Origin: a virus
IMG/VR virus record: IMGVR_UViG_3300025137_000016
Direction: 5' to 3' (one strand)
Length of the DNA stretch: 64,000 nucleotides
This document shows, piece after piece, positions 4,168 through 59,634 of the stretch. Position numbers and translations under genes: made by a program. The first letter of the stretch is position 1. Each line of letters starts with the position of its first letter. The notes under the pieces were generated by a model. It was given only the letters and a program-made list of their open reading frames with translations. It made no database searches and was not told the origin of the DNA.

Positions 4168-4725
4168 ATGACAGTCCCTAAGGAAAAAAAGAAGCCTAGA
4201 CATTATGTTGATAATAAGATGTTTCTACAAGCATTGAAAGATTTTAAAGAAGCATGTGTTAAAGCTGAAAAAGCAAAAGAAGAACGACCAAGAATCCCTG
4301 AGTATATTGGAGAATGTTTATTAAAGATTGGTACACACCTTTCATATAAACCAAACTTCATCAACTATACTTATCGGGAAGATATGATATTAGATGGTGT
4401 TGAGAATTGTATTCAATATATACATAACTTTGATCCTGATAAATCTGCAAACCCTTTCTCATACTTTACACAAATTATTTTTTATGCTTTCTTACGAAGA
4501 ATTAAGAAAGAGAAGAAACAAACTTATGTAAAACAAAAACTCATAGCTGAAATGGATGTTGATGCATTCATGCAAGCAGGTGAAGATGGTGAAGGCACTA
4601 ACGCATATATTGAATTTATGAAAAAGAATCAAGTCCTTGATCCTTACTTTGAAGCCAAAGAGAAAAAGAAGAAAGAAAAAAAGTCCACACCCATCTCTGA
4701 TGCGTTGGACGATGTGAATGAGTAA
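4168..4725 (+). CDS. gp55: Late-transcription sigma factor gp55
   Basis: HYVDNK.F, YIGECLLKI..HLSYKPNF.NYTYREDMI.DG.ENC, NPFSYFTQII.YAFLRRI.KEKKQ. Confidence 0.95.
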   Translation: MTVPKEKKKPRHYVDNKMFLQALKDFKEACVKAEKAKEERPRIPEYIGECLLKIGTHLSYKPNFINYTYREDMILDGVENCIQYIHNFDPDKSANPFSYFTQIIFYAFLRRIKKEKKQTYVKQKLIAEMDVDAFMQAGEDGEGTNAYIEFMKKNQVLDPYFEAKEKKKKEKKSTPISDALDDVNE

Positions 4726-5785: not shown

Positions 5786-7503
5786 TTACATTTGAGAAGA
5801 TTAAGTGGAGGAATCTACTTAGTACTGGTAATGCTTGGACGGAAGTAGATCTTAATCGTTCTACTACTACATTAATTGTTGGAAAGAATGGTGAGGGTAA
5901 ATCTACCATCCTTGATGCTTTGATGTTTTCATTATATGGTCGTCCCTTTCGTAAAGTTAAAAAGGATCAGCTTGTCAATAGTATTAATGGTAAAAACCTA
6001 GAAGTTGAAATAGAATTTAATGTAGGTGGAAAACATTATAAAGTATTGCGAGGTGCCAAACCTAATAAGCTAGAAATATTTGCTGATGGATTAAAGTTAG
6101 ATTCTTTTGCAAGTAATGCTGATACTCAAACATATTTACAAACACAAATTATTGGCTTTGCCTGGAGAACTTTCAGTAAGATGGTTATTCTAGGATCAGC
6201 GAGTTATCAACCTTTTATGCAAATAGGTGGTTGGAATAGACGACAAGTTATTGAAGACATATTAGATATTCGTATTTTTAGTACGATGAATGAATTACTT
6301 ACTGAACGAATTAAAATAACCAAAGAGCAATTAACAACAGCAAGTAATAGAATAGAAGTATGTAAAACAAGTGTAGATGCTCAAAAAGAATTACTTGACG
6401 CATTAAGTAGTGTTAAACAAGATGCCATTGATAAAATAGTTTCTAAGATTGCTGCAAATGAAGAAGAGACAAACGATATATCTAAACAAATAGAAACAGC
6501 CATGGCATCAGTTGAAGAACTTAGTAAGTCTATCAATGATACAGACCAAGTTAATAAAGATCTAGAAGATGCTAAGAAACTGTTGGCTGGTTATGATAAT
6601 AAGAAAGTTGGTATCAGTAAAGATATTGCTTTTTTTGAAACTAATGATGTATGCCCACAATGTGAACAAGGTATAGAACACGATCATAAGAATAATATTC
6701 TTACTAGTTTAAATGATAAGCTAGGCAAAGCCAGTGGGAACTTAACTTCTTTATCCCAAGCTCTACAAAAACTAAATAAACGATACGAGGAGATTGCGTC
6801 TACCAATAAGACTATAATGGGCAAAAACTCAGAAGTAAGTGCTCTCAACCAATCACTCAACCTTATCACAAAACAGAATAAGGAACTAGTAGACGAACAA
6901 TCGAACCTAAATATCGATGACGATAATGTTAAGAATCAGAAACTAAAGCTGAAAGAACTTGCTAGTTCTGCAGTTGAAGCAGTTGAGGAAAAAACTACTA
7001 TTGAAGAACAAAAACAAATCGAAGATGTATCTAAAACACTTCTTGCTGATACTGGGATTAAGACAGAAATTATTCGCCAGTACTTGCCTATCATTAACAA
7101 ACTCATTAATAAATATCTACAAGCGATGGACTTCTTCGTTCACTTTGAACTTGATGAAGACTTCAATGAAACGATTCGTTCTAGATATCGTGATGAGTTC
7201 ACCTATGATAGTTTCTCAGAGGGGGAAAAGTTGAGGATAGATCTAGCAATATTATTTACTTGGCGACAAATCGCTAAAATGAAGAACTCGGTAAATACCA
7301 ATCTGTTATTATTAGATGAAATCTTTGATAGCAGTATGGATACCAATGGTACTGACTTGTTCCTACAAGTTTTAAATGAAATAGGTGAAGGAACAAATGT
7401 TTTCGTCATATCTCATAAAGGGGATCAGCTCTTTGATAAATTTAGATCAGTTATTAAATTTGTTAAGAAGAATGATTTTTCATCAATACAAATCGGAGGA
7501 TAA
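5782..7503 (+). CDS. gp46: Recombination endonuclease subunit gp46 (Rad50/SbcC-like)
   Basis: GKNGEGKST, CPQC zinc hook, SEGEK signature, LLDEIFDSS. Confidence 0.95.
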   Translation: MITFEKIKWRNLLSTGNAWTEVDLNRSTTTLIVGKNGEGKSTILDALMFSLYGRPFRKVKKDQLVNSINGKNLEVEIEFNVGGKHYKVLRGAKPNKLEIFADGLKLDSFASNADTQTYLQTQIIGFAWRTFSKMVILGSASYQPFMQIGGWNRRQVIEDILDIRIFSTMNELLTERIKITKEQLTTASNRIEVCKTSVDAQKELLDALSSVKQDAIDKIVSKIAANEEETNDISKQIETAMASVEELSKSINDTDQVNKDLEDAKKLLAGYDNKKVGISKDIAFFETNDVCPQCEQGIEHDHKNNILTSLNDKLGKASGNLTSLSQALQKLNKRYEEIASTNKTIMGKNSEVSALNQSLNLITKQNKELVDEQSNLNIDDDNVKNQKLKLKELASSAVEAVEEKTTIEEQKQIEDVSKTLLADTGIKTEIIRQYLPIINKLINKYLQAMDFFVHFELDEDFNETIRSRYRDEFTYDSFSEGEKLRIDLAILFTWRQIAKMKNSVNTNLLLLDEIFDSSMDTNGTDLFLQVLNEIGEGTNVFVISHKGDQLFDKFRSVIKFVKKNDFSSIQIGG

Positions 7504-11375: not shown

Positions 11376-11605
11376 AAAAAGAAAAAACCCCACCACCATC
11401 TAAGAAACTTAGATATCACGTGAAGAGGAAAGGTAAAGTCTTTCTGGTAATGGAAAATGGTGGAGACATAAACAATAAAGTTGTTGTTGAATGCTCCACG
11501 AAAAAAGAAGCATATGCGATTTCAAAAACGCAGAGTTCTACTCAGCAGTGGCAACACAATGGTGGAGTTCCTATGTTTTTGTGTTCAGCAAATCAGATAA
11601 GTTAA
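11372..11605 (+). CDS. Hypothetical protein
   Basis: ORF coupled to both neighbours. Confidence 0.55.
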   Translation: MKKEKTPPPSKKLRYHVKRKGKVFLVMENGGDINNKVVVECSTKKEAYAISKTQSSTQQWQHNGGVPMFLCSANQIS

Positions 11606-12267
11606 TGAGTTATATCGTACCACATAAAAAAATCTATTATATTCATATCCCTAAAGCTGGAGGGACTAGCGAGTACTTTAATCTAATTGATACCTTTGGT
11701 ACAAGTAAAGTACAAGAAGTCCCTGAAGGAAAGCACAGCCCATATAACAGGCGATATGAAAGCTATGGTACGAAGTATGCACATGTTAGAAACCCACATA
11801 ATAGAATGCTCTCTATGTTTCTGTTCCATCATGAATTACAGTTTATGTTAGATAAATATATAAGTACAGAACGACAAGAGTTTATGAAGAAACATCACAA
11901 GCTAAGAATTAGTAGAGATGCAACTAAAATTAATACAGAGCAAACTCCATTTGATAGAATGATGGAAACTAAGGGACAGATGTTTACACAAATAACAACT
12001 CCTGAAAATTATATTATGTGGTTAGAAGTTGTTGGTAAAGCAAATAAGATGATGGATAGTCAATTTGCTTATAGACCATATTTACAGCAGAATTTATATT
12101 TGAATGATGATGTGTCAGTTAGAAAAATAGAAGATGAAGAAACGCATAAGAATATTACTACCAAACCTGATGATTATAAAGAAAGAGATTATCTAGATGC
12201 TGGCAAAGATTTGGTCGAGATATATTATAAAGAAGATTTTGATAAATTTGGATATGAAAATGTTTAA
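11605..12267 (+). CDS. Sulfotransferase family protein
   Basis: YIHIPKAGGTS (5'-PSB), VRNPHNRMLS (3'-PB), YKEDFDKFGY; start reassigned to coupled ATG 11605. Confidence 0.8.
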   Translation: MSYIVPHKKIYYIHIPKAGGTSEYFNLIDTFGTSKVQEVPEGKHSPYNRRYESYGTKYAHVRNPHNRMLSMFLFHHELQFMLDKYISTERQEFMKKHHKLRISRDATKINTEQTPFDRMMETKGQMFTQITTPENYIMWLEVVGKANKMMDSQFAYRPYLQQNLYLNDDVSVRKIEDEETHKNITTKPDDYKERDYLDAGKDLVEIYYKEDFDKFGYENV

Positions 12268-12358: not shown

Positions 12359-12610
12359 ATGGGAAAACACTTGAAAACTTCTATGGATGAAAAGGTTATT
12401 GATTATCTTGCCATCGAACTATGGAGAATAGATCCAAATAATAAAGTGCTACATAAATTCATGAGCATGCAGAATGAAGAAGGATTTCATATTAAAAAGA
12501 CTATAAATGAATATGATAAAACTAAGACAATGCCAGAGAAATATAACACAGATGGGACCTGGAAATCACCAAATGGGCAGATTTCATTTGAAGAATTTTT
12601 GGCTGAATAG
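12359..12610 (+). CDS. Hypothetical protein
   Basis: ORF with AGGAG SD. Confidence 0.6.
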   Translation: MGKHLKTSMDEKVIDYLAIELWRIDPNNKVLHKFMSMQNEEGFHIKKTINEYDKTKTMPEKYNTDGTWKSPNGQISFEEFLAE

Positions 12611-12765: not shown

Positions 12766-13950
12766 ATGACAAACTTATCAAAAGAAACTCTGTTCTTAGA
12801 AAAGGCATACGAGCTTTTTCCAGAGGTAGCTGAAAGTCAGCAAATGACTCAGGCTCAAATCTTAGCTGTCCGTAAGGCAGGTATTAGAGTCCCAGGCAGT
12901 GCTTGGGAAAATCGTGTAGCTGGGGCAACTCCTGCACTTTATATTATCCCTGGAGGTAGTATAACAAAACCAGTCCGAGAAACTACTGAAGCAGTTGCAA
13001 CTCAAAAAGTTGTTCCACTAAAATCTTCAGCAGTATCTTCTACTGTAGATAAAAATGCTTTGGTTCCAGAAGTGGATTCAAACTATGTTCCTTTCGGGAA
13101 CTATCAAGATCTAAATCATATTGTTAAATCTAATATGTTTTATCCTTCATACATTGCTGGTCCAACTGGTAATGGTAAATCAACAACTATTGAGCAAATC
13201 TGTGCTAAGCAGAAGAAACCTCTTATTCGTGTAAACTTAAACACGATGACTGATGAAGATCAGTTGATTGGTTCTAAGACTCTAGTTGATGGTAATGTTG
13301 AGATCGTAGAAGGTCCAGTGGTTATCGCCATGAGATTTGGTATCCCACTACTTCTTGATGAGATCGATGCTGGTGGAGCAAATACTCTACTTTGCTTACA
13401 ACCTATCCTTGAGGGCAAACCATTTTATTTCAAATTAAAAAATGAAATCATTGTTCCTGCTAAAGGATTTAATATCTTTGCTACTGCTAATACTAAAGGT
13501 AAAGGCTCTGATGATGGTAGATATATTGGTACTAATGTTCTTAATGAAGCATTCCTTGAAAGGTTTGCTGTGACATTCAACCAACCATATCCTACTCAAA
13601 AAATTGAGTTGAAGATTGTTCAAAATCTTCTTAACCATTATGAGTGTAAAGATAGTGGGGACTTTGCTTCTAACTTAGTTAAATGGGCAGAAGTTGTTCG
13701 TAAGACTTTTGATGATGGTGGTTGTGATGAGAATATCACTACTCGTAGATTGACTCACATTGTGAGAGCTTTCTCGATCTTTAAGAAAGAAGCCAAAGCG
13801 ATAGAGCTTTGCTTGAATAGATTTGATGAAGTCACTAAGATGGCTTTCTTAGATCTTTATAATAAGATTGCTAGTGGGGAGGAAGAAGTTGCTTCCCCTA
13901 GCGAGGAAGATACTACTAGAAACCCATTTAGTGAAGGAGAACAATCATAA
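12766..13950 (+). CDS. MoxR/CobS-like AAA+ ATPase
   Basis: GPTGNGKS, LLLDEID, ATANTKGKG, LNEAFLERF. Confidence 0.9.
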   Translation: MTNLSKETLFLEKAYELFPEVAESQQMTQAQILAVRKAGIRVPGSAWENRVAGATPALYIIPGGSITKPVRETTEAVATQKVVPLKSSAVSSTVDKNALVPEVDSNYVPFGNYQDLNHIVKSNMFYPSYIAGPTGNGKSTTIEQICAKQKKPLIRVNLNTMTDEDQLIGSKTLVDGNVEIVEGPVVIAMRFGIPLLLDEIDAGGANTLLCLQPILEGKPFYFKLKNEIIVPAKGFNIFATANTKGKGSDDGRYIGTNVLNEAFLERFAVTFNQPYPTQKIELKIVQNLLNHYECKDSGDFASNLVKWAEVVRKTFDDGGCDENITTRRLTHIVRAFSIFKKEAKAIELCLNRFDEVTKMAFLDLYNKIASGEEEVASPSEEDTTRNPFSEGEQS

Positions 13951-14779: not shown

Positions 14780-15445
14780 ATGAAACTTTCGAAAGAAACA
14801 TTGAGCGTCCTTAAGAACTTTGCCACTATTAATGGCAATATTCTTATTAAAGCTGGGGATAGACTATCAACTATCTCAGCACAAAAAAATGTTATGGCAT
14901 CTACTACTGTTAAAGAACACTTTGACAGCGAGTTTGGTATCTATGACTTGAACGAGTTTTTAGGAGTGTACAGTTTATTTGCTGACGATCCAGAACTTAA
15001 TTTTGATGAGAAGTTTGTCACTGTGGCAAATGGTAAATCTAAAGTAAAATATTATGCAGCAGATGCATCGGTACTAGCATCCCCAACTAAAGATGCTTTG
15101 CCTGTTGATGAAGATGTTAAATTCGATCTTCCTCGTAGCATGTATGATATGATTATGAAGACTTCGTCAGTATTAAGATCTAATGATATCAGTATCATTG
15201 GTGCGGATGGTAAGTTGACTGTTGTTGTGGCTGATAAGAAGAATGCTACTTCTAACTCTTGGGATGCAATCCTTGGCGATACTGATAAGAATTTTAAAGT
15301 TAATTTCAGGATTGATAATTTTAAGATGTTAGATGGTGATTACGAAGTGACTATTTCTAAGAAAAGAATTTCTAAGTTTGCTTCTAAGATGAATGACCTT
15401 ACATATTTCATCGCAGTTGAAGCTGACTCTACATTCGACTTTTAA
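14780..15445 (+). CDS. gp45: Sliding clamp gp45
   Basis: MKLSKETL.VLKNFATIN, FGIYDLNEFL, YFIAVE. Confidence 0.95.
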   Translation: MKLSKETLSVLKNFATINGNILIKAGDRLSTISAQKNVMASTTVKEHFDSEFGIYDLNEFLGVYSLFADDPELNFDEKFVTVANGKSKVKYYAADASVLASPTKDALPVDEDVKFDLPRSMYDMIMKTSSVLRSNDISIIGADGKLTVVVADKKNATSNSWDAILGDTDKNFKVNFRIDNFKMLDGDYEVTISKKRISKFASKMNDLTYFIAVEADSTFDF

Positions 15446-15467: not shown

Positions 15468-16406
15468 ATGCAAGACCAATTTATTTGGGTTGAGAAATAT
15501 CGACCTAACACTATTGACGAATGTGTCCTTCCCCAAAATTTAAAGGATACATTTAAAGAGTTTGTTGCTAGTGGGCAACTGCCGAACTTTCTGTTCTGTG
15601 GTACTGCTGGAGTGGGTAAGACTACTGTAGCGAAAGCCCTCTGCAATGAAATCGGTGCTGAGTATCTGTTCATCAATGGTTCTGAGGAATCTGGCATTGA
15701 TGTGATACGAACTAAAATCAAAAACTTTGCTTCGTCTGTTTCCCTGACAGACTCAAAGAAAATTGTTATTCTTGATGAAGCAGATTATCTGAATCCGAAC
15801 AGTACTCAGCCAGCATTGAGAGCATTCATTGAAGAGTTCTCAAACAACTGCCGATTTATATTTACCTGTAATTTTAAGAACAGGATTATCGAGCCACTTC
15901 ATTCTAGGTGTGCTGTTATTGAATTTAGAACTGATGGTAAAGATAAACCACAAGTTGCCACTGCCTTTTATAAAAGGGTTGAGTGGATTCTTAATGGCGA
16001 GGGCATCAAGTTTGAGCCAAAGGCTGTTCTAGAACTTATTCAAAAACACTTCCCTGACTTCCGAAGAGTCTTAAATGAATTACAAAGATATTCTGTATCT
16101 GGTAATATAGATTCTGGTGTAATGATCAATGTAAGTGAGGAGTCTTGGAATAATCTATTCTTATTACTTAAAGACAAGAACTTTAAAGAAGTTCGCAAGT
16201 GGGTCACTAAAAATAGTGATATTGAAACCACCCAATTATTTTCTGATTTATTCAACAATGCTAATGTTAAATTAAAACCTGACTCAGTACCACAACTGGT
16301 ATTGATCTTGGCAGACTATCAATACAAAGCAGCATTTGTCGCTGACCATGAACTCAATAAAATGGCAGCACTTACAGAGATAATGGCATCCTGTAAGTTT
16401 CAATAA
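15468..16406 (+). CDS. gp44: Clamp loader large subunit gp44
   Basis: WVEKYRP, GTAGVGKTT, ILDEAD, HSRC. Confidence 0.95.
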   Translation: MQDQFIWVEKYRPNTIDECVLPQNLKDTFKEFVASGQLPNFLFCGTAGVGKTTVAKALCNEIGAEYLFINGSEESGIDVIRTKIKNFASSVSLTDSKKIVILDEADYLNPNSTQPALRAFIEEFSNNCRFIFTCNFKNRIIEPLHSRCAVIEFRTDGKDKPQVATAFYKRVEWILNGEGIKFEPKAVLELIQKHFPDFRRVLNELQRYSVSGNIDSGVMINVSEESWNNLFLLLKDKNFKEVRKWVTKNSDIETTQLFSDLFNNANVKLKPDSVPQLVLILADYQYKAAFVADHELNKMAALTEIMASCKFQ

Positions 16407-16792
16407 TGGCAAATCCATTCTTATATATAAATAATATCACCAACGACAAGAAGGATCTATTTAAAGATAATCCTCTTGCCGAGAAAGATTATGCATCCTT
16501 TATAGTCAATCGTGGTCTAGGATATTATCCTGATACTATTATGCAGTCGAATATGATGAATCGATACCATGATATCCCAAAGTCTTGGCAATACTATTTT
16601 TTACTAAATACTATCACAAAGGCAAAAAGGTTTTCGAAGTGGCATAAGCAAGATAAGCAGACCGAGTCCTTAAAGCTGGTAATGGAATATTATAATTATT
16701 CTCCAGAAAAGGCTCGTCAGGTAATGGATATATTAACAACTGACCAGATGAGCATAATTGAGCAAAAATTAAATAAAGGTGGTAAAAAATAA
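16406..16792 (+). CDS. gp62: Clamp loader small subunit gp62
   Basis: Y..FIVNR.L, KRFSKW.K, YY.YS.EKA; synteny. Confidence 0.9.
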   Translation: MANPFLYINNITNDKKDLFKDNPLAEKDYASFIVNRGLGYYPDTIMQSNMMNRYHDIPKSWQYYFLLNTITKAKRFSKWHKQDKQTESLKLVMEYYNYSPEKARQVMDILTTDQMSIIEQKLNKGGKK

Positions 16793-19433: not shown

Positions 19434-21917
19434 ATGAAGTTTTATACTAATGTACATCCTCATGGCAATCAATTACTAGTCCGATATGTTTCGGGTGGTA
19501 AAAGACGTGCTGAAAAGATACCTTTCAAGCCTAGTGTCTGGGTGACACGAGGGAAAGGCGAAACACCATACAAAACTCTCAAAGGGCATCCTGCCTATAA
19601 AGTCCAACAAGCCAGCATTAAAGACGCAAAAAACTTTGTACAGTCTTATGGCGATGTTATGGATGTTCATGGTCAAACTACATGGCATTATCAATATATG
19701 CATGACGAGTTTGATAAAGATATTGATTGGGACAAAGATCTAATTAAGATCTGGTCTATTGATATTGAAACTGAAGCTGAAGAGGGTTTCCCTAATATTG
19801 AAAGAGCAAATGAGAAACTTCTTTTAATTACCTTACAAGATAATCATACTAAAGAAACTGTCACTTTTGGCACCAAGCCATATACTGGCGATGCTACTCA
19901 ACATACTGATTGGCGATATGTATATTGTAGTGATGAGAAAGTTCTCTTTAATAAATTTCTAGATTACTGGATTGAAAACTATCCTGATGTTATTACTGGA
20001 TGGAACTCTCAGTTCTTTGACCTTGCTTATTTATGGAGAAGAATGTGTCACATAATTGGTGAAGACCATGCTCGTAGATTATCTCCCTGGAAAATAGTAC
20101 ATGAAAGGGAAATATTTGTAAAAGGTAATAAACAGTTCGCCATTGCTATCGCAGGTGTTGCTCAGCTAGATTATCTAGACCTCTACAAAAAATATACTTA
20201 TACTGCCCAGGAATCTTATCGTTTAGATAATATCGCATTCGTTGAACTTAATTCTAAGAAATTAGATCACAGTGAATATTCTACATTCTCTGACTTCTAT
20301 AAGATGGACTGGAATAAGTTTGTTGATTATAACATTCATGATGTTAGATTAGTTGATATGCTAGAAGATAAAATGAAACTGATTGAACTTCAGTTGACTA
20401 TGGCATATAATGCTAAGATTAATTATGATGATGTATTCTCGCAAGTTCGTATGTGGGATATGATTGTTCACAATTATCTAATGAAAGTAAATGTGGTCAT
20501 ACCACCCAAGTCCAGCCAAAATAAATCTACTAAGTTTGAAGGAGCATTCGTAAAAGATCCAATTGTAGGATTACATAAATGGGTGGCTTCCTTTGACTTA
20601 AACTCACTATATCCGCATTTAATTATGCAGTATAATATTTCCCCTGAAACATTACAACAAGAATCAGTTGAAAAGGGTGTCGAGCATTATCTTAAAAATC
20701 CTGCTGGAGAATCTGATTTTGCTGTTGCTGCAAATGGTTCGCAATATAGAAAAGACTTTAGAGGTGTGTTCCCATCTATTATGGAAGACTTCTATAATCA
20801 AAGAAAGATTGCTAAAAAAGAAATGCTTCAAGCACAGCAATTATATGAAAACGAAAATGATCCTAGACAATTAAAAGTTATCTCAAGTAAAAATAATTAT
20901 CAGATGGGAATGAAGATTGCTCTTAACTCTGCTTATGGTGCACTCGGCAATCAATACTTTAGATACTTTGATATTAAGATGGCTGAAGCTATTACTACTT
21001 CTGGGCAATTATCTATTCGTTGGATTCATGATAGAATGAATGAATATCTAAACAAGATAATTGGTACAAAAGATGAAGACTATATTATTGCTGTTGATAC
21101 AGATTCTATCTATGTGACCTTTGAGAAACTTGTTGATAAAGTTATGGGAGATAAACAAACTGACATAAATAAAACTATTAAGTTCTTAGATACAATATGT
21201 AATGAAAAATTCATGCCATATATAAATGAGCAATATGCTATTCTTGCTAAAAGACAAAATGCTTTTGCAAACAAGATGGTAATGGAAAGAGAAGTTCTAG
21301 CCGATAAAGGTTTATGGACTGCTAAGAAAAGATATGTTCTTTCAGTATATAACTCTGAAGGAGTATCTTATAAAAAACCTAAGATGAAGATTATGGGTTT
21401 AGAGATGATTAAATCTTCTACTCCTCATGCTGTTCGTGAATTATTAAAAGAGGTAATACCAACTGTTCTTCGTGGAACTCAATCTGAATTGTATGAGTTT
21501 ATCGAGAAAGCTAGAACTCATTTTAATTCACTTCCTGTTGAAGAGATTGCTTTTCCTAGATCGGTAAATGGTCTGAGCAACTATTATGATTCCTCTCAAA
21601 TATATCGCAAGGCAACTCCTATTCATGTTAGAGGTGCTTTACTTTATAATCATTATTTAAAAGAGAAGAATCTAAATCTTAGATATAATACTATTAAAGA
21701 GGGTGAAAAGATAAGATTCGTATATCTTAAAAAGCCCAATACAATGAGGGAAAATGTTATTTCCTTCCTGGATGAGATTCCTAAGGAATTTGATATCCAT
21801 AAATATGCTGACTATGACTTGATGTTTGAAAAGGTGTTTCTAGATCCTCTTGAAATACTAGTAAATTCGCTCAAATGGAAGGTCAAGGACACAGCTTCTT
21901 TAGAGGATTTCTTTTAG
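19434..21917 (+). CDS. gp43: Family B DNA polymerase gp43
   Basis: DIET exonuclease, SFDLNSLYP, KIALNSAYG, DTDS; uninterrupted. Confidence 0.97.
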   Translation: MKFYTNVHPHGNQLLVRYVSGGKRRAEKIPFKPSVWVTRGKGETPYKTLKGHPAYKVQQASIKDAKNFVQSYGDVMDVHGQTTWHYQYMHDEFDKDIDWDKDLIKIWSIDIETEAEEGFPNIERANEKLLLITLQDNHTKETVTFGTKPYTGDATQHTDWRYVYCSDEKVLFNKFLDYWIENYPDVITGWNSQFFDLAYLWRRMCHIIGEDHARRLSPWKIVHEREIFVKGNKQFAIAIAGVAQLDYLDLYKKYTYTAQESYRLDNIAFVELNSKKLDHSEYSTFSDFYKMDWNKFVDYNIHDVRLVDMLEDKMKLIELQLTMAYNAKINYDDVFSQVRMWDMIVHNYLMKVNVVIPPKSSQNKSTKFEGAFVKDPIVGLHKWVASFDLNSLYPHLIMQYNISPETLQQESVEKGVEHYLKNPAGESDFAVAANGSQYRKDFRGVFPSIMEDFYNQRKIAKKEMLQAQQLYENENDPRQLKVISSKNNYQMGMKIALNSAYGALGNQYFRYFDIKMAEAITTSGQLSIRWIHDRMNEYLNKIIGTKDEDYIIAVDTDSIYVTFEKLVDKVMGDKQTDINKTIKFLDTICNEKFMPYINEQYAILAKRQNAFANKMVMEREVLADKGLWTAKKRYVLSVYNSEGVSYKKPKMKIMGLEMIKSSTPHAVRELLKEVIPTVLRGTQSELYEFIEKARTHFNSLPVEEIAFPRSVNGLSNYYDSSQIYRKATPIHVRGALLYNHYLKEKNLNLRYNTIKEGEKIRFVYLKKPNTMRENVISFLDEIPKEFDIHKYADYDLMFEKVFLDPLEILVNSLKWKVKDTASLEDFF

Positions 21918-22959: not shown

Positions 22960-24018
22960 ATGGTTGGTTATTTAAACGATCTTATAGATAATCTTGATAA
23001 TGAGTACGCAGGTCTTGCGGAAAATGCTTTGGACTCTGATGTCAGTTTCGTTGACACAGGGTCTTATGTATTTAATGCTCTATTGAGTGGATCTATATTT
23101 GGTGGACTACCAGCAAACAAGGTGACTGCCTTGGCTGGTGAAAGTTCTACAGGAAAAACATTTTTTGCTCTGGGGATTGCTAAAAACTTTCTAGACCTAG
23201 ACCCAGAAGCAGGTGTAATATATTTTGAAACAGAGGGTGCACTTACTAAGCAAATCCTCGAAGATAGAGATATTGATACCAACAGGTTCGTAATGGTTCC
23301 TGTGACAACTATTCAAGAGTTCCGTACTCAAGCTGTGCGAATACTTGATAACCATAAAAGTGTGCCTGAAGCAGCACGGAAACCAATCCTATTTGTTTTA
23401 GATTCATTGGGTATGCTCTCAACCACCAAAGAAGTAGCAGATGTGGCAGAGGGTAAAGATACTCGTGATATGACGAGAGCACAACTAGTAAGAGGTGCTT
23501 TCAGAGTATTGAGTCTAAAACTCGCACAGCTTGATGTACCAATGATTGTCACTAATCATACTTTTGATGTTATTGGTTCTTACATGCCTATGAAGGACAT
23601 GGGTGGTGGAGGTGGCTTAAAGTATGCTGCATCTACAATTATATTTTTGGGTAAATCTAAAGATAGAGATGGTACTGATATTGTTGGAAACATTATTAAA
23701 TGTACTACACAAAAATCTAGATTTACTAAGGAGAACTCTAAAGTTGAGTGTAAACTAAATTTCGAAAAAGGACTTTCACGTTATCATGGTCTGACAGAAC
23801 TTGCTGTTGAAGCAGGTATCTGGGAATCGGCTGGTGGTAGGATTACTGTAGATGGTAAAAAACTGTTCGGTAAACATATCGCCAACGATCCTGAGAAATA
23901 CTTTACTGAGGATGTTCTTAAATCAATTGATGCCCATACCAAGAAGAAGTTTATGTATGGTGGCTCAAGTCTAGAAGAGATTGTACCAGAAGATGTCGAA
24001 GATAATACAGGGAAATAA
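22960..24018 (+). CDS. uvsX: RecA-like recombinase UvsX
   Basis: DTGSY.FNALLSGS, AGESSTGKT, DSLGML, MGGGGGLKYAAS. Confidence 0.95.
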   Translation: MVGYLNDLIDNLDNEYAGLAENALDSDVSFVDTGSYVFNALLSGSIFGGLPANKVTALAGESSTGKTFFALGIAKNFLDLDPEAGVIYFETEGALTKQILEDRDIDTNRFVMVPVTTIQEFRTQAVRILDNHKSVPEAARKPILFVLDSLGMLSTTKEVADVAEGKDTRDMTRAQLVRGAFRVLSLKLAQLDVPMIVTNHTFDVIGSYMPMKDMGGGGGLKYAASTIIFLGKSKDRDGTDIVGNIIKCTTQKSRFTKENSKVECKLNFEKGLSRYHGLTELAVEAGIWESAGGRITVDGKKLFGKHIANDPEKYFTEDVLKSIDAHTKKKFMYGGSSLEEIVPEDVEDNTGK

Positions 24019-24506: not shown

Positions 24507-25901
24507 ATGCGTATTGAAGAAACTATATTAAATAATCTATTACATAATGATGAATACTCACGCAAGGTGACACCATTCATCAAACCTGAATATTTTGAAG
24601 AACGCAATGAGAAGATTATGTTTGAAGAATATACTAAGTTATTCCTACAATATAATAATGTTCCTAATGCTGAAATGATTGCTAATGAAGTCTTCAATCG
24701 TAAAGACTTATATGATAATGATCATAAACTAATTCAGGATGCCATTCTTAAGATGAAAGAGCCAAATGATGTAAATGAAAACTGGCTCTATGATAAAACT
24801 GAAGATTGGTGTAAAGAACGAGCAGTATATAATACTGTAATGGATGCTATCAAAATTATTGATGGTCGTGATAAACAACATACCAAAGATGCTATTCCTA
24901 AAATGATGCAAGATGCTTTGGGTGTTTGCTTTGATACTTCTGTTGGTCATGATTATCTAGAAGACTCCGACTCTCGTTATGAGTTCTATCATAAAGTTGA
25001 AGAGAAAATTAAATTTGATATTGAATTATTGAATACTATTACCAGAGGTGGCTTGAGTAAAAAGACTCTTAATATTGCTATGGCTGGTACAGGTGTTGGT
25101 AAATCATTATTTATGTGTCATCATGCTGCATCAGTTTTGGGTGCTGGTATGAATGTTCTTTATATTACTATGGAGATGGCTGAAGAAAAAATCTCTGAAA
25201 GGATTGATGCTAACTTATTGAACTTGGGTATGAATGAAATTAAAGTCGTTGACCATGACATATTCAGTAAAAGAATTAATAAGATTAAAGATTCTAGTAA
25301 AGGTAAATTGATTGTAAAAGAATATCCTACAGGCTCTGCTCACTCTGGTCACTTCAGAGCATTACTTGAAGAACTTAAAATGAAAAAAGGTTTCAAGCCA
25401 GATATTATCTTTATTGATTATCTTAATATCTGTGCTTCACAAAGATTAAAGATGGGATCTAATGTAAACACTTATTCTTACATTAAATCTATTGCCGAAG
25501 AACTTAGAGGACTGGCAGTTGAATATAATTGTCCTCTCGTATCAGCTACCCAAACGACAAGAGGTGGCTTTAATAACACTGATGTTGGTCTAGAAGATAC
25601 TTCTGAATCTTTTGGTTTACCAGCGACTGCTGATTTAATGTTCGCGATTATTGCTAGTGAAGAACTAGACAATATGGGACAGTGGATGATTAAGCAACTG
25701 AAGAATAGATATTCAGATCCTAATTATTACAAGCGATTCGTAGTTGGTGTTGATAAGAATAAAATGCGATTATATGATGTAGAAGCATCTGCTCAATCAA
25801 ACATAATGGGATCAGGTCAAGAAAAAAAAGAAGATGATATCGCTGTGTTTGATAAGTCCGATGCTGGACAGCGATTAAATATGGAAGGATTTAAATTATG
25901 A
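24507..25901 (+). CDS. gp41: Replicative helicase gp41 (DnaB-like)
   Basis: AGTGVGKS, IDYLNIC, SATQTTR, SESFGLPATAD, QLKNRY. Confidence 0.96.
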   Translation: MRIEETILNNLLHNDEYSRKVTPFIKPEYFEERNEKIMFEEYTKLFLQYNNVPNAEMIANEVFNRKDLYDNDHKLIQDAILKMKEPNDVNENWLYDKTEDWCKERAVYNTVMDAIKIIDGRDKQHTKDAIPKMMQDALGVCFDTSVGHDYLEDSDSRYEFYHKVEEKIKFDIELLNTITRGGLSKKTLNIAMAGTGVGKSLFMCHHAASVLGAGMNVLYITMEMAEEKISERIDANLLNLGMNEIKVVDHDIFSKRINKIKDSSKGKLIVKEYPTGSAHSGHFRALLEELKMKKGFKPDIIFIDYLNICASQRLKMGSNVNTYSYIKSIAEELRGLAVEYNCPLVSATQTTRGGFNNTDVGLEDTSESFGLPATADLMFAIIASEELDNMGQWMIKQLKNRYSDPNYYKRFVVGVDKNKMRLYDVEASAQSNIMGSGQEKKEDDIAVFDKSDAGQRLNMEGFKL

Positions 25902-27199
25902 CAAAAGTGATAACAGCACCAAAGAAGTTTGAATGCGAAGATAAGCTAGGATTATTTGGTGATGAAAATGATTATGAATTATTATGTGATTGGGATTGCG
26001 ACTTTTATGCTCCCACTCCTATGGGTGAAGAAAACTCTGAAGCCAATATTATATTTAAGTTTAGAAAAAACTGGTTTACTCAAGACCAACAAGATAAAGC
26101 ATATAATGGTTTGCGTGAAGCAGCAGGTGCCACTGAGAATCGTGGACTCGCAGCAGGTAGTGAAAAAACAGTTGCTCTAGGAACTAGGGATTGGGTCACT
26201 AACTATCACAACGCATTAATACAATATTTTATGTCACCCTCAGCTACTCTTGATGGCTCGGATCCTGTTGAAGCAATTCAACTAGAGTATAAAGGTCGTG
26301 AGAAGATTGCTGATGACAGTCGTGGTAAAGTGTGGCTCGCACAAAAAGTAGCAGAAGAAGATTTCGTATTTGATAATTGGGTTGAAGAAATAAGAGGATT
26401 GCCTAGAGAGGAAATGGTTAAAGAAGCAACTAGAGTAAATGATAAATTGACCTCTACAACTTCTTATGCTAATTCAGTGTTCTCAGGTATCGCAGGATTC
26501 TTTGATAGATACCCTCGTATTCCTTTTGGTCGTCCTACAACTTTCACTAGAGATAATCCTGAGAAGTTTGAACAAGGATTCCCTTTCTTACAACAATTAT
26601 CTAAAGGTTTTGGTGAACTATTGCCAGTCAGGTATGGTAAACAACAGGAAGCATGTAATAAACTAGATAATAAATTTATTATTCCTGGAACTGTTTTCAC
26701 TACTGCTACTGTTAATAAAACATTTAGAACAGCATACCATCGAGACATGGGAGATCTAAATGAAGGATTCTCTAATCTTACAGTCGTATCAAATAATGGT
26801 AAATATTCTGGTGGGTACTTAATACTTCCTGAATATAAAGTTGCTATTAATATTCGTCCAGGAGATTTATTATTAATTAATAATCATGATGGAATACATG
26901 GTAATACACCAATGGTTATGGAAGATGAAAGTGCTGAAAGAATATCTTTCGTATGTTATTTCAGAGAGAAGATGTTAGAACTAGGAAGCTGGGATTATGA
27001 ACGAGCTCGTGAAGATTATGTTATTAATCGTAGAACTAATAAAGAACACGTCTTACAAAGACCATTATGGAATGGTATTAGTCCTGGGATGTGGGATGAG
27101 AAAGAATGGTATGACTTTCTTGAAGATAAACTAGGGAAAGATATTGTATCTAAGTACCACCCTGACAGTGAAGCTAGTTCTCTAGCAGACTTTTTTTAG
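25898..27199 (+). CDS. TET/JBP-family 2OG-Fe(II) dioxygenase
   Basis: FTT.TVN..FRTAYHRD.GD (HxD), GGYL.LPEY, GDLLL...H...HGNT, RIS.VCY.RE. Confidence 0.85.
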   Translation: MTKVITAPKKFECEDKLGLFGDENDYELLCDWDCDFYAPTPMGEENSEANIIFKFRKNWFTQDQQDKAYNGLREAAGATENRGLAAGSEKTVALGTRDWVTNYHNALIQYFMSPSATLDGSDPVEAIQLEYKGREKIADDSRGKVWLAQKVAEEDFVFDNWVEEIRGLPREEMVKEATRVNDKLTSTTSYANSVFSGIAGFFDRYPRIPFGRPTTFTRDNPEKFEQGFPFLQQLSKGFGELLPVRYGKQQEACNKLDNKFIIPGTVFTTATVNKTFRTAYHRDMGDLNEGFSNLTVVSNNGKYSGGYLILPEYKVAINIRPGDLLLINNHDGIHGNTPMVMEDESAERISFVCYFREKMLELGSWDYERAREDYVINRRTNKEHVLQRPLWNGISPGMWDEKEWYDFLEDKLGKDIVSKYHPDSEASSLADFF

Positions 27200-27200
27200 T

Positions 27201-27932
27201 ATGAATTATAAAATATTTAAAGACACCTATGTTCGTGAAGTAGATGGCAAAGCTCTAGGAGTTGATAAGGATATGGTGAACCAATGCCTATCTAATTATT
27301 CAAAGTTTGATAATCTTGATGGTGCCATAGTTATGGACTGGGGTATGAATATTGGTGCGTTTGGAAGAATGCTACTTGATACAAATATAAAACAATATAT
27401 TGGTGTAGAATGTCATCCTGAAAATTTTGAAGTATGTGAAAAGAATCTAGGGCATGATGAAAGATTTTGTTTAATTAATGCTGCAGTCACTACTCAAGAT
27501 ATTCCTGAGATAACTTTATATCTAACAGGAAGTAAACAAGAATTTTGTTCAGGCACTACTAATCCAAAAAGTAATGCTGCAAAGAACATGAGAAAAAACC
27601 AAGTCAAAGTTCCAACAGTACAAGCACAACAATTATTTGATATTTACCAACCAACACATTTAAAGTGTGATGTTGAAGGCGAAGAATATCGTATCTTTGA
27701 ACCAGATTGGTTTATTCCTGAAAGTATCAAACAGATGTCTTTAGAGTTTCACTGGTCAGATAGAATACTATCAGATTATGAAAGCAATCAACGAGCTAAA
27801 TTTATTGAGCAAGGTTTCACACCTTTACAAGAACAATTAAATTTAGTCCCAGGAGATAAGCAAGTAATGTTCTTGGGTGAAGAAGTTAAATACAGAAACA
27901 TATGGGGTATGGATACTCTATATAAACGATGA
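27201..27932 (+). CDS. FkbM-family SAM-dependent methyltransferase
   Basis: DWGMNIGAF motif I, E.HPENF, NAAV, LKCDVEGEEY, EFH. Confidence 0.85.
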   Translation: MNYKIFKDTYVREVDGKALGVDKDMVNQCLSNYSKFDNLDGAIVMDWGMNIGAFGRMLLDTNIKQYIGVECHPENFEVCEKNLGHDERFCLINAAVTTQDIPEITLYLTGSKQEFCSGTTNPKSNAAKNMRKNQVKVPTVQAQQLFDIYQPTHLKCDVEGEEYRIFEPDWFIPESIKQMSLEFHWSDRILSDYESNQRAKFIEQGFTPLQEQLNLVPGDKQVMFLGEEVKYRNIWGMDTLYKR

Positions 27933-29113
27933 AGTATTTACACACAGATAATAAAGATAAAGAATATGTAGATTGGCGACTCCCTGAAAATAGGGAGAAA
28001 GGTTTTCTATTATGGTTAGATTGGCGACTAACTTATAATGACCTCGACCATTACATGACAGCCAACATATTTCGCGATGCTACTGGCGATAAATCCCCTA
28101 CAAAAAAACCTATGACTGAAGAACAGCGACTCTGGTACTGTTTAATCTTTGGTTGCACCTATCAAACAGAAATGGCTTGGGCGATATATTGGAACTTTCC
28201 AAATCTATTGGAAATTGATTTACAAGAATTAGAAGAATGGAATGTTGAGCATTTAGATAAACAAAGATATGCTCGTGATACAAAATATAATAAAGGTAGA
28301 ATTGCTGAACAAGTAAGATCTATGCAACAATTGATTATGCCCTATGGTTCTATTAAAGCATGGGTAGATAATCAATTAAGAGATAACCCAAGTGAATCCT
28401 TTTTTAATATGTATGAGGAAGCACAGAAGATACACAAGTATGGTAGAATGACTACATGGTTATTTTGTCAAGCATTAAAAGAAACAGCCGAAGTACCCTT
28501 AGAGCCTGACACAATGTTAGCTACTGACAAATCTAACTGGAGTGTTAGATCTGGTCTTTGTTATTTAAAAGGTTGGGATAATCTTATTGAAGCCAAAGGT
28601 GCGAAGCTCGGAAAAGATGATATGCTGAATGTGGCTGAAGCAGAAAAATATATTTTTGCCAAAGCTAAAGATAATGTTTCGCCAGAAAATTCTAAAGTGC
28701 TTACAAACTTTTTATTAGAATCCCACCTATGTCAATATAAGAAACTAATGCTTGGTGGCGATTATGGTGGGCACTCTTCAGGTGATCATTATTCTAGAGG
28801 AAGTTTTTTAAAAGAAAAATGGGAGGGTATAGTGAACTATGATGCGTTCTTTGAAGATGCTATTACTAAGCATCACCCACTCGTACAGAAAAAAAGGGAA
28901 AGTCTTGCCCTAAGAGATTTATGTAAGAAAACAGGTCAAATGATTAACCTTCATCAAGATTATGATTTTATGCCAGATATGTATAAGGAAACAGGAATGG
29001 ATCCTAACTGGTTCTATAACAAGGGTGCTTATGAGAAAGAAGCAGTCAAATGTATAGATGCGTATCAGCTAAAGATGAGTGAAGAGAAATTCGGCTTGGA
29101 GGTTTACTTTTAA
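27929..29113 (+). CDS. aGPT-Pplase / amino acid:DNA transferase-like protein (HhH glycosylase fold)
   Basis: RLW...FG.TY....AW, D.KY.KG, YGRM..W.F...L, RSGL, LES.LC.YKK pattern; context with TET/JBP and P-loop kinase. Confidence 0.7.
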   Translation: MKYLHTDNKDKEYVDWRLPENREKGFLLWLDWRLTYNDLDHYMTANIFRDATGDKSPTKKPMTEEQRLWYCLIFGCTYQTEMAWAIYWNFPNLLEIDLQELEEWNVEHLDKQRYARDTKYNKGRIAEQVRSMQQLIMPYGSIKAWVDNQLRDNPSESFFNMYEEAQKIHKYGRMTTWLFCQALKETAEVPLEPDTMLATDKSNWSVRSGLCYLKGWDNLIEAKGAKLGKDDMLNVAEAEKYIFAKAKDNVSPENSKVLTNFLLESHLCQYKKLMLGGDYGGHSSGDHYSRGSFLKEKWEGIVNYDAFFEDAITKHHPLVQKKRESLALRDLCKKTGQMINLHQDYDFMPDMYKETGMDPNWFYNKGAYEKEAVKCIDAYQLKMSEEKFGLEVYF

Positions 29114-29212: not shown

Positions 29213-30490
29213 ATGTCAAAAATTAAGGTCGCCATTATTGGCACTGGTAATTGTGCAAAGTCGGTAGTCGAAGGTGTGCAATACTATACTCAAAATCCCC
29301 AAGATAAAGTAGGATTAATGTATCCAGATATAGGAGGATACACTGTAGAAGATATCGAATTCGTTTGTGGTTTCGATGTTGATCCTAGAAAAGTCGGGAA
29401 ACCATTACAACAAGCATTAAGAGCAGCACCAAACTGTGCCATGCATCATGTATCAGAAATTGATGATACTTGTATAGCAAAAGACAGTATGGTATATTCT
29501 AGTCCAGAACTAGATGGAGTTGCTTCACACATGCTTGACTATCCAGAAGCAGTATCATTTAGAACAGGAGCAGAAACTGCTTTATCTAAAAAACAAGTTG
29601 CTCATACTTTAAACTTCCACAAGGTTGATGTTATTATTAACTATCTTCCAGTTGGTTCTGAAAAAGCAACAGAGTTTTATATAGACGCAGCAGTAATGGC
29701 TGGTGTTCATTTTGTAAACTGTATTCCAACTCTTATTGAAACTGAAAAGACTAAAGTCATAGAACAGAAGTTCATTGATGCTGGTCTTACTATTGTCGGA
29801 TCTGATATGAGATCTGCATGGGGTGCTTCTAGATTATCTGAAGTATTACAGGGAGCGATGTTAGATTCTGGTCTACAAGTGACGCAACATATTCAAATGA
29901 ATATGGCAGCAGGATCTACACAAGGTCAAGAAACTATTAGAACAGGAAGAACAGCAAATACTGACTTCTTAAATATGGCTTATAAAGAAAGATTAAAATC
30001 TAAACATATTTCTAAAGAGAATGTTTTAAAAGGTCAGAATCTAGTTAGAGATGAATCTATCGCAGGTATGACTTTGTATGCTGGTCCAAGTTTAACAGTA
30101 TTCCAAAAACCTGGAGGAGAATATGTTGGCTCTGATAATAAGATTGCCAATTTAGATATAGTCGCCTATGGTTTTGGTGGGGCAAGGTATGAATTATCTG
30201 CAAGGATGTCAGTACAAGATTCGCCAAACTCTGGAGGTGTAGTTGTATCAGCTATTCGTTTCTGTAAGGTTGCTTCTGAAATGCAAGTAGTTGGATTCTT
30301 AAGAGGTCCATCAGCTTGGACGCAAAAGACTCCACCTGTACAATTAAAAACAGAAGATGCTAAGTTTGAATGTGATGCATTAGCTAGACGTGAACTTACT
30401 AAGATGACTGAACCACAGTTAGTTGTAAACAAACCAAAAGCAAAAGATCTAGCATATACATATCAAAAAGGTGAAACTGATTATGAATAG
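29213..30490 (+). CDS. ino1: myo-inositol-1-phosphate synthase
   Basis: KVAIIGTGNCA.S.V.GV.YY, NYLPVGSEKA, FVNCIP, NTDFLNM, SK.ISK, DSPNSGGV...AIR.CK. Confidence 0.9.
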   Translation: MSKIKVAIIGTGNCAKSVVEGVQYYTQNPQDKVGLMYPDIGGYTVEDIEFVCGFDVDPRKVGKPLQQALRAAPNCAMHHVSEIDDTCIAKDSMVYSSPELDGVASHMLDYPEAVSFRTGAETALSKKQVAHTLNFHKVDVIINYLPVGSEKATEFYIDAAVMAGVHFVNCIPTLIETEKTKVIEQKFIDAGLTIVGSDMRSAWGASRLSEVLQGAMLDSGLQVTQHIQMNMAAGSTQGQETIRTGRTANTDFLNMAYKERLKSKHISKENVLKGQNLVRDESIAGMTLYAGPSLTVFQKPGGEYVGSDNKIANLDIVAYGFGGARYELSARMSVQDSPNSGGVVVSAIRFCKVASEMQVVGFLRGPSAWTQKTPPVQLKTEDAKFECDALARRELTKMTEPQLVVNKPKAKDLAYTYQKGETDYE

Positions 30491-30893
30491 AAGAATCAAT
30501 ACTTTTGATATTGATGGTGTTATCTATATGGGTAAGCACGATGGTGTTTATCCAGGAAAAAGTGATGTCATTATTACAGGTAGATCTATAGATGAGTGGG
30601 ATGAAACTACTGCTATGCTACAAGCAAAAGGCATTAAGAATGAAGTCTTTATGAATCCAGCAAGGTTTGAAAATAAAACTAGACAAGGTTCTGGTATTCA
30701 TAAAGGCAACATTATAAAAATGTTAAGAGTTCAAAGAGAGATAGAAATAGGAATACATTTTGATGACGATCCTATACAAATAAAAGAGATCGAAAGAATA
30801 AATCCTGATATCACATGTGTACTATTATCCCATGAATTAGTGGATAAAGAAAACTGTAGACATGTAAACTTCTTTGAGTCTGGAGGAGAATAA
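30483..30893 (+). CDS. HAD-superfamily phosphatase
   Basis: FDIDGV motif I, ITGR motif II, K, HFDDD motif IV. Confidence 0.8.
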   Translation: MNRRINTFDIDGVIYMGKHDGVYPGKSDVIITGRSIDEWDETTAMLQAKGIKNEVFMNPARFENKTRQGSGIHKGNIIKMLRVQREIEIGIHFDDDPIQIKEIERINPDITCVLLSHELVDKENCRHVNFFESGGE

Positions 30894-31468
30894 TGATTAT
30901 AGCAATTGGTGGAGAACCAGCAACAGGTAAATCTACATTGATGAAACAATGGATGAAAGATTATACTTGGGATGATGTCAAGTGTACAGATCTATTATAT
31001 GGTATGCACTGTCAAGAGCTGAATACTATTGTTCTCGGAAAAGACTATTTCAATGAAGAACAGATGTTCTGTGGTACTGATAGACTATCAATGGCAGTAC
31101 AACCTAAAGCCATTGAGTGGTTTAAAACCTCATACAAGCCATCTGGGGTTAATATCGTATTTGAGGGAGATAGGTTGTTTAGTGCTTCATTTCTTGGCGA
31201 AATGACCTCTCAGGGACACGATATACGCATCATTTACATAAAGGCAGACCAAAGTACCCTAGACGAAAGACATGTCTCCAGGAACGATAATCAGGACGAT
31301 AAGTTCCTAAAATCAAGGAAAACCAAGCTATCTAACATATTATCCAACTTCGAGCTTATGCCCTACATTGAAGAGTTTACAAATAATACAATTGAAGATC
31401 AGTCGGTCTTAGTGGAATTAATCTTAAAGGAACTAAATAGTAGTGATGGCAAAATGGTACAGGGATAA
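30893..31468 (+). CDS. P-loop nucleotide kinase (modified-base kinase-like)
   Basis: GGEPATGKST, GTDRLSM, FEGDRL, lid R...R. Confidence 0.8.
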   Translation: MIIAIGGEPATGKSTLMKQWMKDYTWDDVKCTDLLYGMHCQELNTIVLGKDYFNEEQMFCGTDRLSMAVQPKAIEWFKTSYKPSGVNIVFEGDRLFSASFLGEMTSQGHDIRIIYIKADQSTLDERHVSRNDNQDDKFLKSRKTKLSNILSNFELMPYIEEFTNNTIEDQSVLVELILKELNSSDGKMVQG

Positions 31469-39590: not shown

Positions 39591-40559
39591 ATGAGTAATG
39601 ATAAAAATGAGCCAGTGGATATCCCAGAAACTGATGAAGATTGGGACAAAATCATAGATGAGCAAGACGCCATCGAAAAACACAAAATAGCACAAGCAGA
39701 ACTAGACGCAGAGATGGGTGGTAAAACATTTACCAAACCCACAGTTCCGTCACCTGCATTAAGCTCTGATCCTGAAGCTCCTCTTCCTGAGGGTGTTCTT
39801 AAAAGAGTCATGGGTATGGCTATTCCTACAAGAGAAAAACAACTTGAGGATTATGAAAAGTATAAAGAAGCTACATCCAAAACTACTGATCAAAGTAAAG
39901 TTGCATATGCAATTGAACAGATCGGAGAAAACAATTTAGATGGTGCTCAAAAATGGCTTAATGAAAACAAACAGCAACTAGACGAATCTAAAAGATTAAC
40001 TATTACTGAAGGACAAGCTGTTCAGGTTCACTATGTAAAATTCTTATCTGAAGAAGAGTTTGAAAGTAAAATTATTGAAGGACTTGCTGAGATTAAACAA
40101 ATTGAAGTAAAAGATATAATGGATGCTGGTGGTATGGACGCACACTTAGTAAGGGATTTAGATATCGATTCATTAGATGCTATTGAACTTATTATGGATG
40201 CTGAAGATATGCTTGGTGCTCAGATTGAAAACACTGAAATTATGTGGGTCAAAACATTAAAAGATATCTTCGAAGTTATTAAGTATAAGATCGAAAATGA
40301 CAATATGCCTTTCCCTATCCCTGACTTTGATGAAGAAGATATTATATTCAGACCAACCACTACTAATGTAGATGGTGTAGAGGTACATGGGGGCAACTCT
40401 GCTTATAAAGCATTCATGGCTGGGTCTGATCAACAGAGAGCTGTAGAAGGCGATATTGATGCATGGCTTGAAGAAGAAGACGCAAGAGAACAAAAAATGC
40501 GTGAACTTCTTGAAGAAGATGATGATGATTTATCTGTCGGACACGACAAAAAGGAATAA
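39591..40559 (+). CDS. Acidic protein with internal acyl-carrier-protein domain
   Basis: LVRDLDIDSLDAIELIMDAED..G..I phosphopantetheine-site signature. Confidence 0.75.
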   Translation: MSNDKNEPVDIPETDEDWDKIIDEQDAIEKHKIAQAELDAEMGGKTFTKPTVPSPALSSDPEAPLPEGVLKRVMGMAIPTREKQLEDYEKYKEATSKTTDQSKVAYAIEQIGENNLDGAQKWLNENKQQLDESKRLTITEGQAVQVHYVKFLSEEEFESKIIEGLAEIKQIEVKDIMDAGGMDAHLVRDLDIDSLDAIELIMDAEDMLGAQIENTEIMWVKTLKDIFEVIKYKIENDNMPFPIPDFDEEDIIFRPTTTNVDGVEVHGGNSAYKAFMAGSDQQRAVEGDIDAWLEEEDAREQKMRELLEEDDDDLSVGHDKKE

Positions 40560-59623: not shown

Positions 59624-59634
59624 AGGAGTGCCCA

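Follow-up and report, generated by a model that had tools for sequence, protein, structure and literature searches.

In the bacteriophages T4 and RB69, the polymerase and two late-transcription factors reach the gp45 sliding clamp through their extreme C-termini. The C-terminal 11 residues of the RB69 DNA polymerase, gp43, have been co-crystallised on the hydrophobic patch of the clamp; the C-termini of gp43, gp55 and gp33 are highly similar, hydrophobic-acidic and interchangeable, and the epitope of gp55 sits on a divergent, probably unstructured linker (reviewed in PMC2988020). Phage thymine dioxygenases of the TET/JBP (5mYOX) family have been shown only recently to act on DNA post-replication; expressed alone, such enzymes hydroxylate 9-15% of all chromosomal thymines in E. 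coli, and how the phage targets its own DNA is regarded as an open question, as is the rationale for modifying after replication, which is called a mystery (PMC13229309). The present analysis concerns a DNA of 64,000 nucleotides from a marine phage of the T4-like kind (IMG/VR record IMGVR_UViG_3300025137_000016; the whole stretch is referred to as the window), in which a dioxygenase of this family and the gp43 polymerase end in nearly the same peptide, here called the tail, and in which a cognate gp45 is also encoded.

Comparison of this tail with the known clamp epitopes leads us to regard it as probable that the tail is a portable peptide for docking on gp45, by which the hypermodification of thymine is coupled to phage DNA that is newly replicated and loaded with clamps. 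The C-terminus of the dioxygenase, of the form [ST]L[ED/A]xFF, would be a short linear motif for docking, like the gp45-binding peptide of gp43; with its flexible linker, it would hold the enzyme on gp45 clamps that the gp44/62 loader has set on phage DNA in replication. The tethered dioxygenase would most likely oxidise thymine to 5-hydroxymethyluracil (5hmU) in the new duplex, and the neighbouring P-loop kinase, an amino-acid:DNA transferase (ADDT) with a weaker tail, and tailoring enzymes would then build the hypermodified thymine. Modification would be restricted to replicating phage DNA, with a presumed benefit in targeting or in the discrimination of self from non-self.

The C-terminal peptide and the enzyme that carries it

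The gene of the TET/JBP Fe(II)/2-oxoglutarate DNA-base dioxygenase (25898-27199, + strand; 433 residues, the long form of the enzyme) ends in SSLADFF, as read from the DNA. The proposed clamp-docking peptide (27176-27199, + strand) comprises its last seven codons, AGT TCT CTA GCA GAC TTT TTT (27176-27196), and the stop codon TAG (27197-27199). The gene of gp43 (19434-21917, + strand), a family-B polymerase of 827 residues with DNA_pol_B and exonuclease domains in Pfam, ends in ASLEDFF; its tail codons occupy 21894-21914, and its 3' end reads GCT TCT TTA GAG GAT TTC TTT TAG. This gp43 aligns end to end with that of RB69, placing ASLEDFF over ASLFDMF. The ADDT gene (also AADT, formerly aGPT-Pplase; 27929-29113, + strand; 394 residues; PF18724 at 5.6e-20, 72.5 bits) ends in GLEVYF, a degenerate, weaker match that fits only the looser pattern Lxx[FY][FY]. 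These are the three endings reported for dioxygenase, polymerase and transferase in the first-pass annotation, and all three are encoded where it placed them.

The codons for S, L, D and F differ between the dioxygenase and gp43 tails; the likeness is thus one of peptides, with no duplicated DNA, and gene conversion between the two tails is ruled out by the same differences. The likeness is also beyond chance. From amino-acid composition, the number of window open reading frames (ORFs) expected to end in S-L-x-D-F-F is 5e-5, and two tails of the tight form [STAN]LxxFF(x) appeared in 0 of 2000 residue shuffles of the 75 window ORFs of at least 80 residues.

The dioxygenase itself matches PF12851 at 1.6e-21 (76.6 bits against a cut-off of 34.9, residues 207-357). 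An alignment of 20 diverse long-form enzymes of 36-88% identity (alignment A1) shows no variation at H281, D283, H334 or R348; by analogy, the first three would be the HxD...H iron ligands, and R348 the arginine that binds 2-oxoglutarate. The AF2 model (mean predicted local distance difference test, pLDDT, of 88) has a double-stranded β-helix fold like that of solved TET enzymes, its best Foldseek match being NgTET1 at 8.8e-11, followed by TET2 and CcTet. Over the last 13 residues the pLDDT drops to 70 and then to 51, with a short helix at 429-432.

Its substrate is probably thymine, since an ADDT (PF18724) and a P-loop kinase (PF18751) lie beside it, as in thymidine hypermodification clusters, and the scanned ORFs of the window yielded no C5-cytosine methyltransferase. 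This assignment agrees with published work on phage 5mYOX enzymes: those with no C5-methyltransferase beside them were shown to be thymine dioxygenases that act after replication, and they are linked to kinases and amino-acid:DNA transferases (PMC13229309). The FkbM methyltransferase and inositol-phosphate-synthase-like genes of the same cluster suggest further tailoring of the base.

Conservation and distribution of the tail

Homologs of the dioxygenase were compared at their C-termini: of the closest 120 (55-88% identity), 119 end in Lxx[FY][FY](x) and the remaining one in IEEFFA, and the residues just upstream vary; the check on homologs proposed in the first-pass annotation thus comes out in favour of the tail. 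In alignment A1, L429, F432 and F433 are conserved, and the stretch between a conserved YHPE and the tail varies in both sequence and length. Conserved residues, variable linker and the drop in pLDDT together characterise a short linear motif that is flexibly joined to its protein. When homologs are represented by clusters at 50% identity, 19 of the 25 closest hits are tailed; short-form TETs (about 300 residues, from other phage types) are mostly tail-less, with seven strict matches among the 110 enzymes under 400 residues. This pattern of conservation indicates that the TET tail is under selection. In the ADDT family, the ending VGLEVYF is retained in enzymes only about 40% identical.

Nine of the 110 short-form TETs bear a different motif near the C-terminus, ...ELERAK.R..GDPLY or GTPLF (P0253, P0269, P0298, P0335, P0354, P0355 and others); it may correspond to the C-terminal extension specific to ParB-dependent enzymes (PMC13229309).

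The distribution of the tail was surveyed over ORFs of at least 60 residues in 88 loci, comprising the window, 80 IMG/VR loci around TET homologs and the loci of four isolate phages. The ending Lxx[FY][FY](x0-2) is present in 130 of 1760 coding-strand ORFs: 77 TETs, 36 gp43 polymerases, 8 ADDTs, 4 TET-associated glycosyltransferases (TAGT, PF20691), 3 GNAT acetyltransferases adjoining an ADDT, one Dam-type N6-adenine methyltransferase adjoining gp43, and one unknown ORF of the window. On the opposite strand, 12 of 1327 spurious ORFs have this ending. The tighter pattern matches 114 of the 1760 coding-strand ORFs and 2 of the 1327 on the opposite strand. Strict and tight patterns served as detectors; a loose hydrophobic one was discarded, as it gives 50-56 hits per genome among six-frame ORFs and catches structural proteins.

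The genome-wide census covered the 64-kb window and the complete genomes of phages C48C1 and DLP6. In C48C1 the strict motif is found on gp43, Dam and TET, and in DLP6 on gp43, TET and the TAGT glycosyltransferase, in each case with one short spurious ORF in addition; among assigned proteins, the strict motif is thus confined to the polymerase and to enzymes that modify DNA. The Dam-type enzyme (D12 class) is encoded immediately after gp43 in many T4-like contigs of marine origin (L005:3995-4879, which is C48C1, and L113-L192) and, when beside gp43, almost always ends in [ST]L[DE]xFF(x), with the variants LDNFLGD, LDLFWD and LDLFMETA. About 78 homologs of the Dam-type enzyme, most of them neighbours of a tailed gp43, have the tail or a close variant, as do 16 of 16 homologs of the TAGT glycosyltransferase. 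Judged from these sequences, the polymerase ending has been acquired by five unrelated folds of DNA-base enzymes: TET, ADDT, TAGT, GNAT and Dam.

These counts bear on the simplest alternative, that the shared ending is an accident of chance or composition in an AT-rich, Phe-codon-rich genome and has no function. The window is indeed only 35% G+C, and loose hydrophobic endings are frequent, as the yield of the discarded pattern illustrates. Two tight tails were nevertheless never obtained by shuffling, the tight motif is almost confined to the coding strand, and the tail is kept in homologs down to 36% identity; the conservation data effectively refute this alternative already, and we give it next to no weight.

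The sliding clamp as candidate partner

The proposed docking partner, gp45, is encoded at 14780-15445 (+ strand; 221 residues; phrog_223 at 5.8e-71). It also has PF09116/PF02916 on record and matches the T4 and RB69 clamp structures 1CZD, 1B77 and 1B8H at E-values of 1e-25 to 7e-27. Phages that have gp43 and gp45 together with a tailed TET are the window phage, DLP6, C48C1, Cr30 and Melnitz, the tails of the last two being degenerate. In Cr30 the TET ends in GATLF, beside a polymerase ending in LSSLFD. In the three phages in which no match to gp45 was found (S-CBWM1, HTVC112P and P12024L, a small sample), the TETs are tail-less. In this set, the tail goes together with the T4-type replisome.

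The Melnitz-3 locus (a Methylophilales phage; L088:1422-3606), from a phage that has gp45, presents a different arrangement: gp43, ending in TTLEDFFG, is followed by a tail-less HhaI-type C5-methyltransferase and then by a distant TET-like protein of 328 residues ending in NLNDFLGE. The locus probably encodes a 5-methylcytosine pathway of a T4-like phage, in which the dioxygenase, alone of the two modifying enzymes, has a tail, of degenerate form.

A complex model of the gp45 trimer with TET residues 404-433, both with alignments, scored 0.51, against 0.00 for the highest of three controls. The mark for this score is reached by 58 of 80 solved complexes and by 2 of 110 mismatched pairs; the passes at scores of 0.60 or below comprise only 7 of the solved complexes, along with both mismatched pairs. 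At least 75% of contacts are common to the runs, and the pLDDT of the partner is 45-51. The structure prediction suggested in the first-pass annotation thus lends weak support to binding; the pass may reflect likeness only, since the complex of the RB69 clamp with its peptide is already solved.

This leaves room for a shared hub other than the clamp, that is, for docking of the tail on another partner in replication or recombination, such as the gp44/62 loader, gp32 or the gp41/gp59 system. The comparative data establish that a partner is shared and do not name it, the predicted complex with gp45 is weak, and the TET gene overlaps that of gp41. Against such a partner stand the positional homology of the gp43 tail to the RB69 peptide, which is clamp-bound in the crystal (PMC2988020), the absence of the tail where gp45 is absent, and the 0.00 scored by controls in which the clamp was replaced. 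We regard docking elsewhere as quite unlikely, and the clamp as the partner to which the evidence points.

Several observations weigh against clamp docking as proposed here. The complex score of 0.51 lies in the band in which passes are more often wrong than right unless the prior is strong. The residue that follows the FF pair does not co-vary between the gp43 and the TET of the same phage; polymerases ending in FFG often pair with TETs ending in FF, which gives no evidence either way on a shared site. The gp55 of the window (late sigma factor; 4168-4725, + strand), a homolog of a known T4 clamp client, has the C-terminus KKSTPISDALDDVNE, ending in ISDALDDVNE, which is acidic and hydrophobic and lacks the FF pair of gp43 and of the modifying enzymes; the FF form is therefore not the sole clamp epitope in this phage. 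The tail of the ADDT family is patchy, with 13 strict and 19 loose matches among 84. At seven loci (L198-L202, L204 and L205), a full-length TET is tail-less and the adjoining glycosyltransferase is tailed: the TETs end, for instance, in ...EHNRLVES or ...GGVELDI (L200:2696-4798, L205:2694-4810), and the glycosyltransferase, which starts at the next base, ends in STLEEFF or SSLESFF. The tether is thus not obligatory for every enzyme, and one per pathway may suffice. Baseplate-hub proteins of DLP6 and C48C1 end in GMENFFV (KU682439.2, 135667-136368) and GIDDFF (OQ984149.1, 115098-115805), presumably for structural reasons. Finally, the binding of T4 α-glucosyltransferase to gp45, the only published claim of this kind for a DNA-modifying enzyme of T4, was not reproduced in 2025-26 (bioRxiv 10.64898/2025.12.06.692756; PMC13216743).

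Two of these observations also favour a different reading, in which the tail works for its own enzyme, for example in folding, in oligomerisation, in the partnership of TET with the transferase, or as a signal for stability or proteolysis, and resembles the polymerase ending by convergence on a hydrophobic-acidic terminus. The xIDDFF-like endings of the baseplate-hub proteins fit such convergence, as do the tail-less TETs with a tailed glycosyltransferase beside them. Five unrelated folds share the ending, though, and only in phages with T4-type replisomes; and the tail is modelled with low confidence and follows a linker of varying length, of a kind that intramolecular roles rarely tolerate. 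We hold a role within the enzyme to be unlikely.

On balance, the proposal of the first-pass annotation that modifying enzymes dock on gp45 through a polymerase-like tail is partly supported, by the conservation of the tail, its presence in unrelated modifying families, the tail-less TETs of phages without gp45 and the alignment with RB69; it is weakened by the low complex score, the degenerate ADDT tail and the existence of tail-less TETs.

A broader form of the clamp-docking proposal would make gp45 a general toolbelt for post-replicative DNA modification in T4-like phages, with one portable C-terminal peptide recruiting dioxygenases, glycosyltransferases, amino-acid transferases, acetyltransferases and Dam-type methyltransferases. 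The loaded clamp would then be a required activator of long-form TETs on duplex DNA, in the way that the ParB-like sliding clamp is for the ParB-dependent subclass. We put this forward tentatively and consider it doubtful in its full extent; if true, it would explain why some phage TET clades were inactive when expressed alone in E. coli (PMC8256090, PMC13229309), and it would confine modification to replicating phage DNA. In either form, a loaded clamp may be needed to reconstitute such 'inactive' clades, and C-terminal affinity tags, common in published studies, could mask the tail.

The locus and its relation to known systems

All genes of the window are on the + strand. No near-identical DNA was found in the phage reference collection, and among isolates that have the same dioxygenase the nearest are DLP6, Cr30 and C48C1, all of them T4-like phages. 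Besides gp55, gp45 and gp43, the T4-type replication module includes gp47/gp46 (4718-7503), the clamp loader subunits gp44 (15468-16406; phrog_168 at 8.9e-121) and gp62 (16406-16792; phrog_225 at 2.2e-39), RegA, UvsX (22960-24018) and the replicative helicase gp41 (24507-25901; DnaB_C at 2.1e-17). The last of these lies directly upstream of the TET gene, whose start overlaps the gp41 stop, so that the modification cluster lies inside the replication module. The helicase has a conserved C-terminal ending of its own, FxGFKF in most relatives (L008-L087) and MEGFKL in the window, which may serve for docking in its own right, perhaps of a helicase loader or a primase.

Downstream of the dioxygenase, the FkbM-family methyltransferase (27201-27932; PF05050 at 1.2e-6) ends in DTLYKR and has no clamp-type tail. 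It is followed by the ADDT and then by three further genes without a tail: a myo-inositol-1-phosphate synthase-like protein (29213-30490; PF01658 at 1.5e-9), a similar gene to which lies near the TET gene of Caulobacter phage Cr30; a small kinase-like ORF (30471-30893) with a weak polynucleotide-kinase match (phrog_415 at 2.2e-8); and a second such ORF, matching P-loop nucleotide kinase 3 (30893-31468; PF18751 at 6.3e-9), a candidate 5hmU DNA kinase.

Two further ORFs have endings of related character. One, of 83 residues (12359-12610), lies between cobS and gp45 and ends in ISFEEFLAE, a hydrophobic-acidic terminus such as clamp epitopes have; it could be a co-activator of late transcription resembling gp33, or some other client of the clamp, and when tested as gp33 it gave no PHROG match and no tblastn match in the phage collection. 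The other, of 228 residues (53559-54245), lies upstream of nrdB, ends in DGILKVYF and has no Pfam or PHROG match. Elsewhere in the window, a CobS-like ATPase (12766-13950), a sulfotransferase-like ORF (11491-12267) and an ORF with a phosphopantetheine-attachment site (39591-40559) are encoded. The large subunit of ribonucleotide reductase (49486-51378; small subunit, 54386-55384) is flanked by a small 2-oxoglutarate-Fe(II) oxygenase (49011-49571) and an Asp/Asn β-hydroxylase-like protein (51381-52322). At 59144-63699 lies a cassette that is unusual for a phage: it opens with two curli-secretion components, CsgF-like (59144-59623) and CsgG-like (59635-60477), and continues with proteins that have a FecR domain and a weak match to PA14.

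Set beside described modification pathways, the cluster shares its kinase and ADDT with the thymidine hypermodification pathways, which combine 5hmU with a P-loop kinase and AADT/aGPT-Pplase (PMC13229309). In the classic pathways, as summarised there, 5hmU is supplied before replication as a nucleotide; the dioxygenase of the window would instead make it on the polymer. The ParB-dependent thymine dioxygenases of the same study (5mYOX176 with ParB176) need a subclass-specific C-terminal extension for activity. Their partner is ParB176; that proposed for the window enzyme, a long form of about 430 residues with an extra N-terminal region of about 200, is gp45, and no ParB gene was found among the window ORFs scanned. 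A gp45-type tail is not mentioned in PMC13229309 or in two related papers, and no prior description of it on TET, glycosyltransferase or Dam enzymes was found in the literature searched, most subscription journals lying outside its coverage. What is new here are the proposed clients for a known clamp epitope, and a clamp tether would be a simple answer to how the phage aims its dioxygenase at its own DNA.

The closest precedent for the idea is the interaction of T4 α-glucosyltransferase with gp45, proposed in 2004, in which a modifying enzyme would likewise ride on the clamp during replication; no shared C-terminal motif was reported for it, and the interaction is disputed. The experiments that did not reproduce it (PMC13216743) used C-terminal His tags, and on tails such as those described here a tag of this kind could mask the free C-terminus.

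The closest precedent for the peptide is provided by the epitopes of T4 and RB69 gp43, gp55 and gp33, which the tail of the window resembles in its place at the extreme C-terminus, its hydrophobic and acidic character, its variable, flexible linker, its portability and the presence of a cognate gp45 in the same genome. It differs in register, LxxFF here against the LFDMF form in RB69, and binding to gp45 is here a prediction. It differs also in its bearers: the T4 and RB69 clients are the polymerase and two late-transcription factors, and those proposed here are a dioxygenase and an amino-acid transferase, joined in relatives by glycosyltransferases, GNAT acetyltransferases and a Dam-type methyltransferase. 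The list of T4 clamp clients would accordingly grow to include a set of DNA-modifying enzymes.

In eukaryotes, clients of the sliding clamp PCNA dock through the PIP box; among them is DNMT1, a maintenance methyltransferase that is brought to the replication fork. There, as proposed here, a clamp-binding peptide with an Lxx[FY][FY] core couples a DNA-modifying enzyme to replication. The clamp here is gp45 and not PCNA, the motif is strictly C-terminal, and the reaction is oxidation and hypermodification and not the copying of methyl groups. The eukaryotic or archaeal PIP-box pattern Qxx[LIVM]xx[FY][FY] is itself not matched, as the dioxygenase has A in place of Gln three residues before the Leu (EASSLADFF). 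Judged by its sequence, the tail would thus work like a PIP box while standing outside that family, and the clamp tether proposed for the phage dioxygenase would parallel the coupling of DNMT1 to PCNA.

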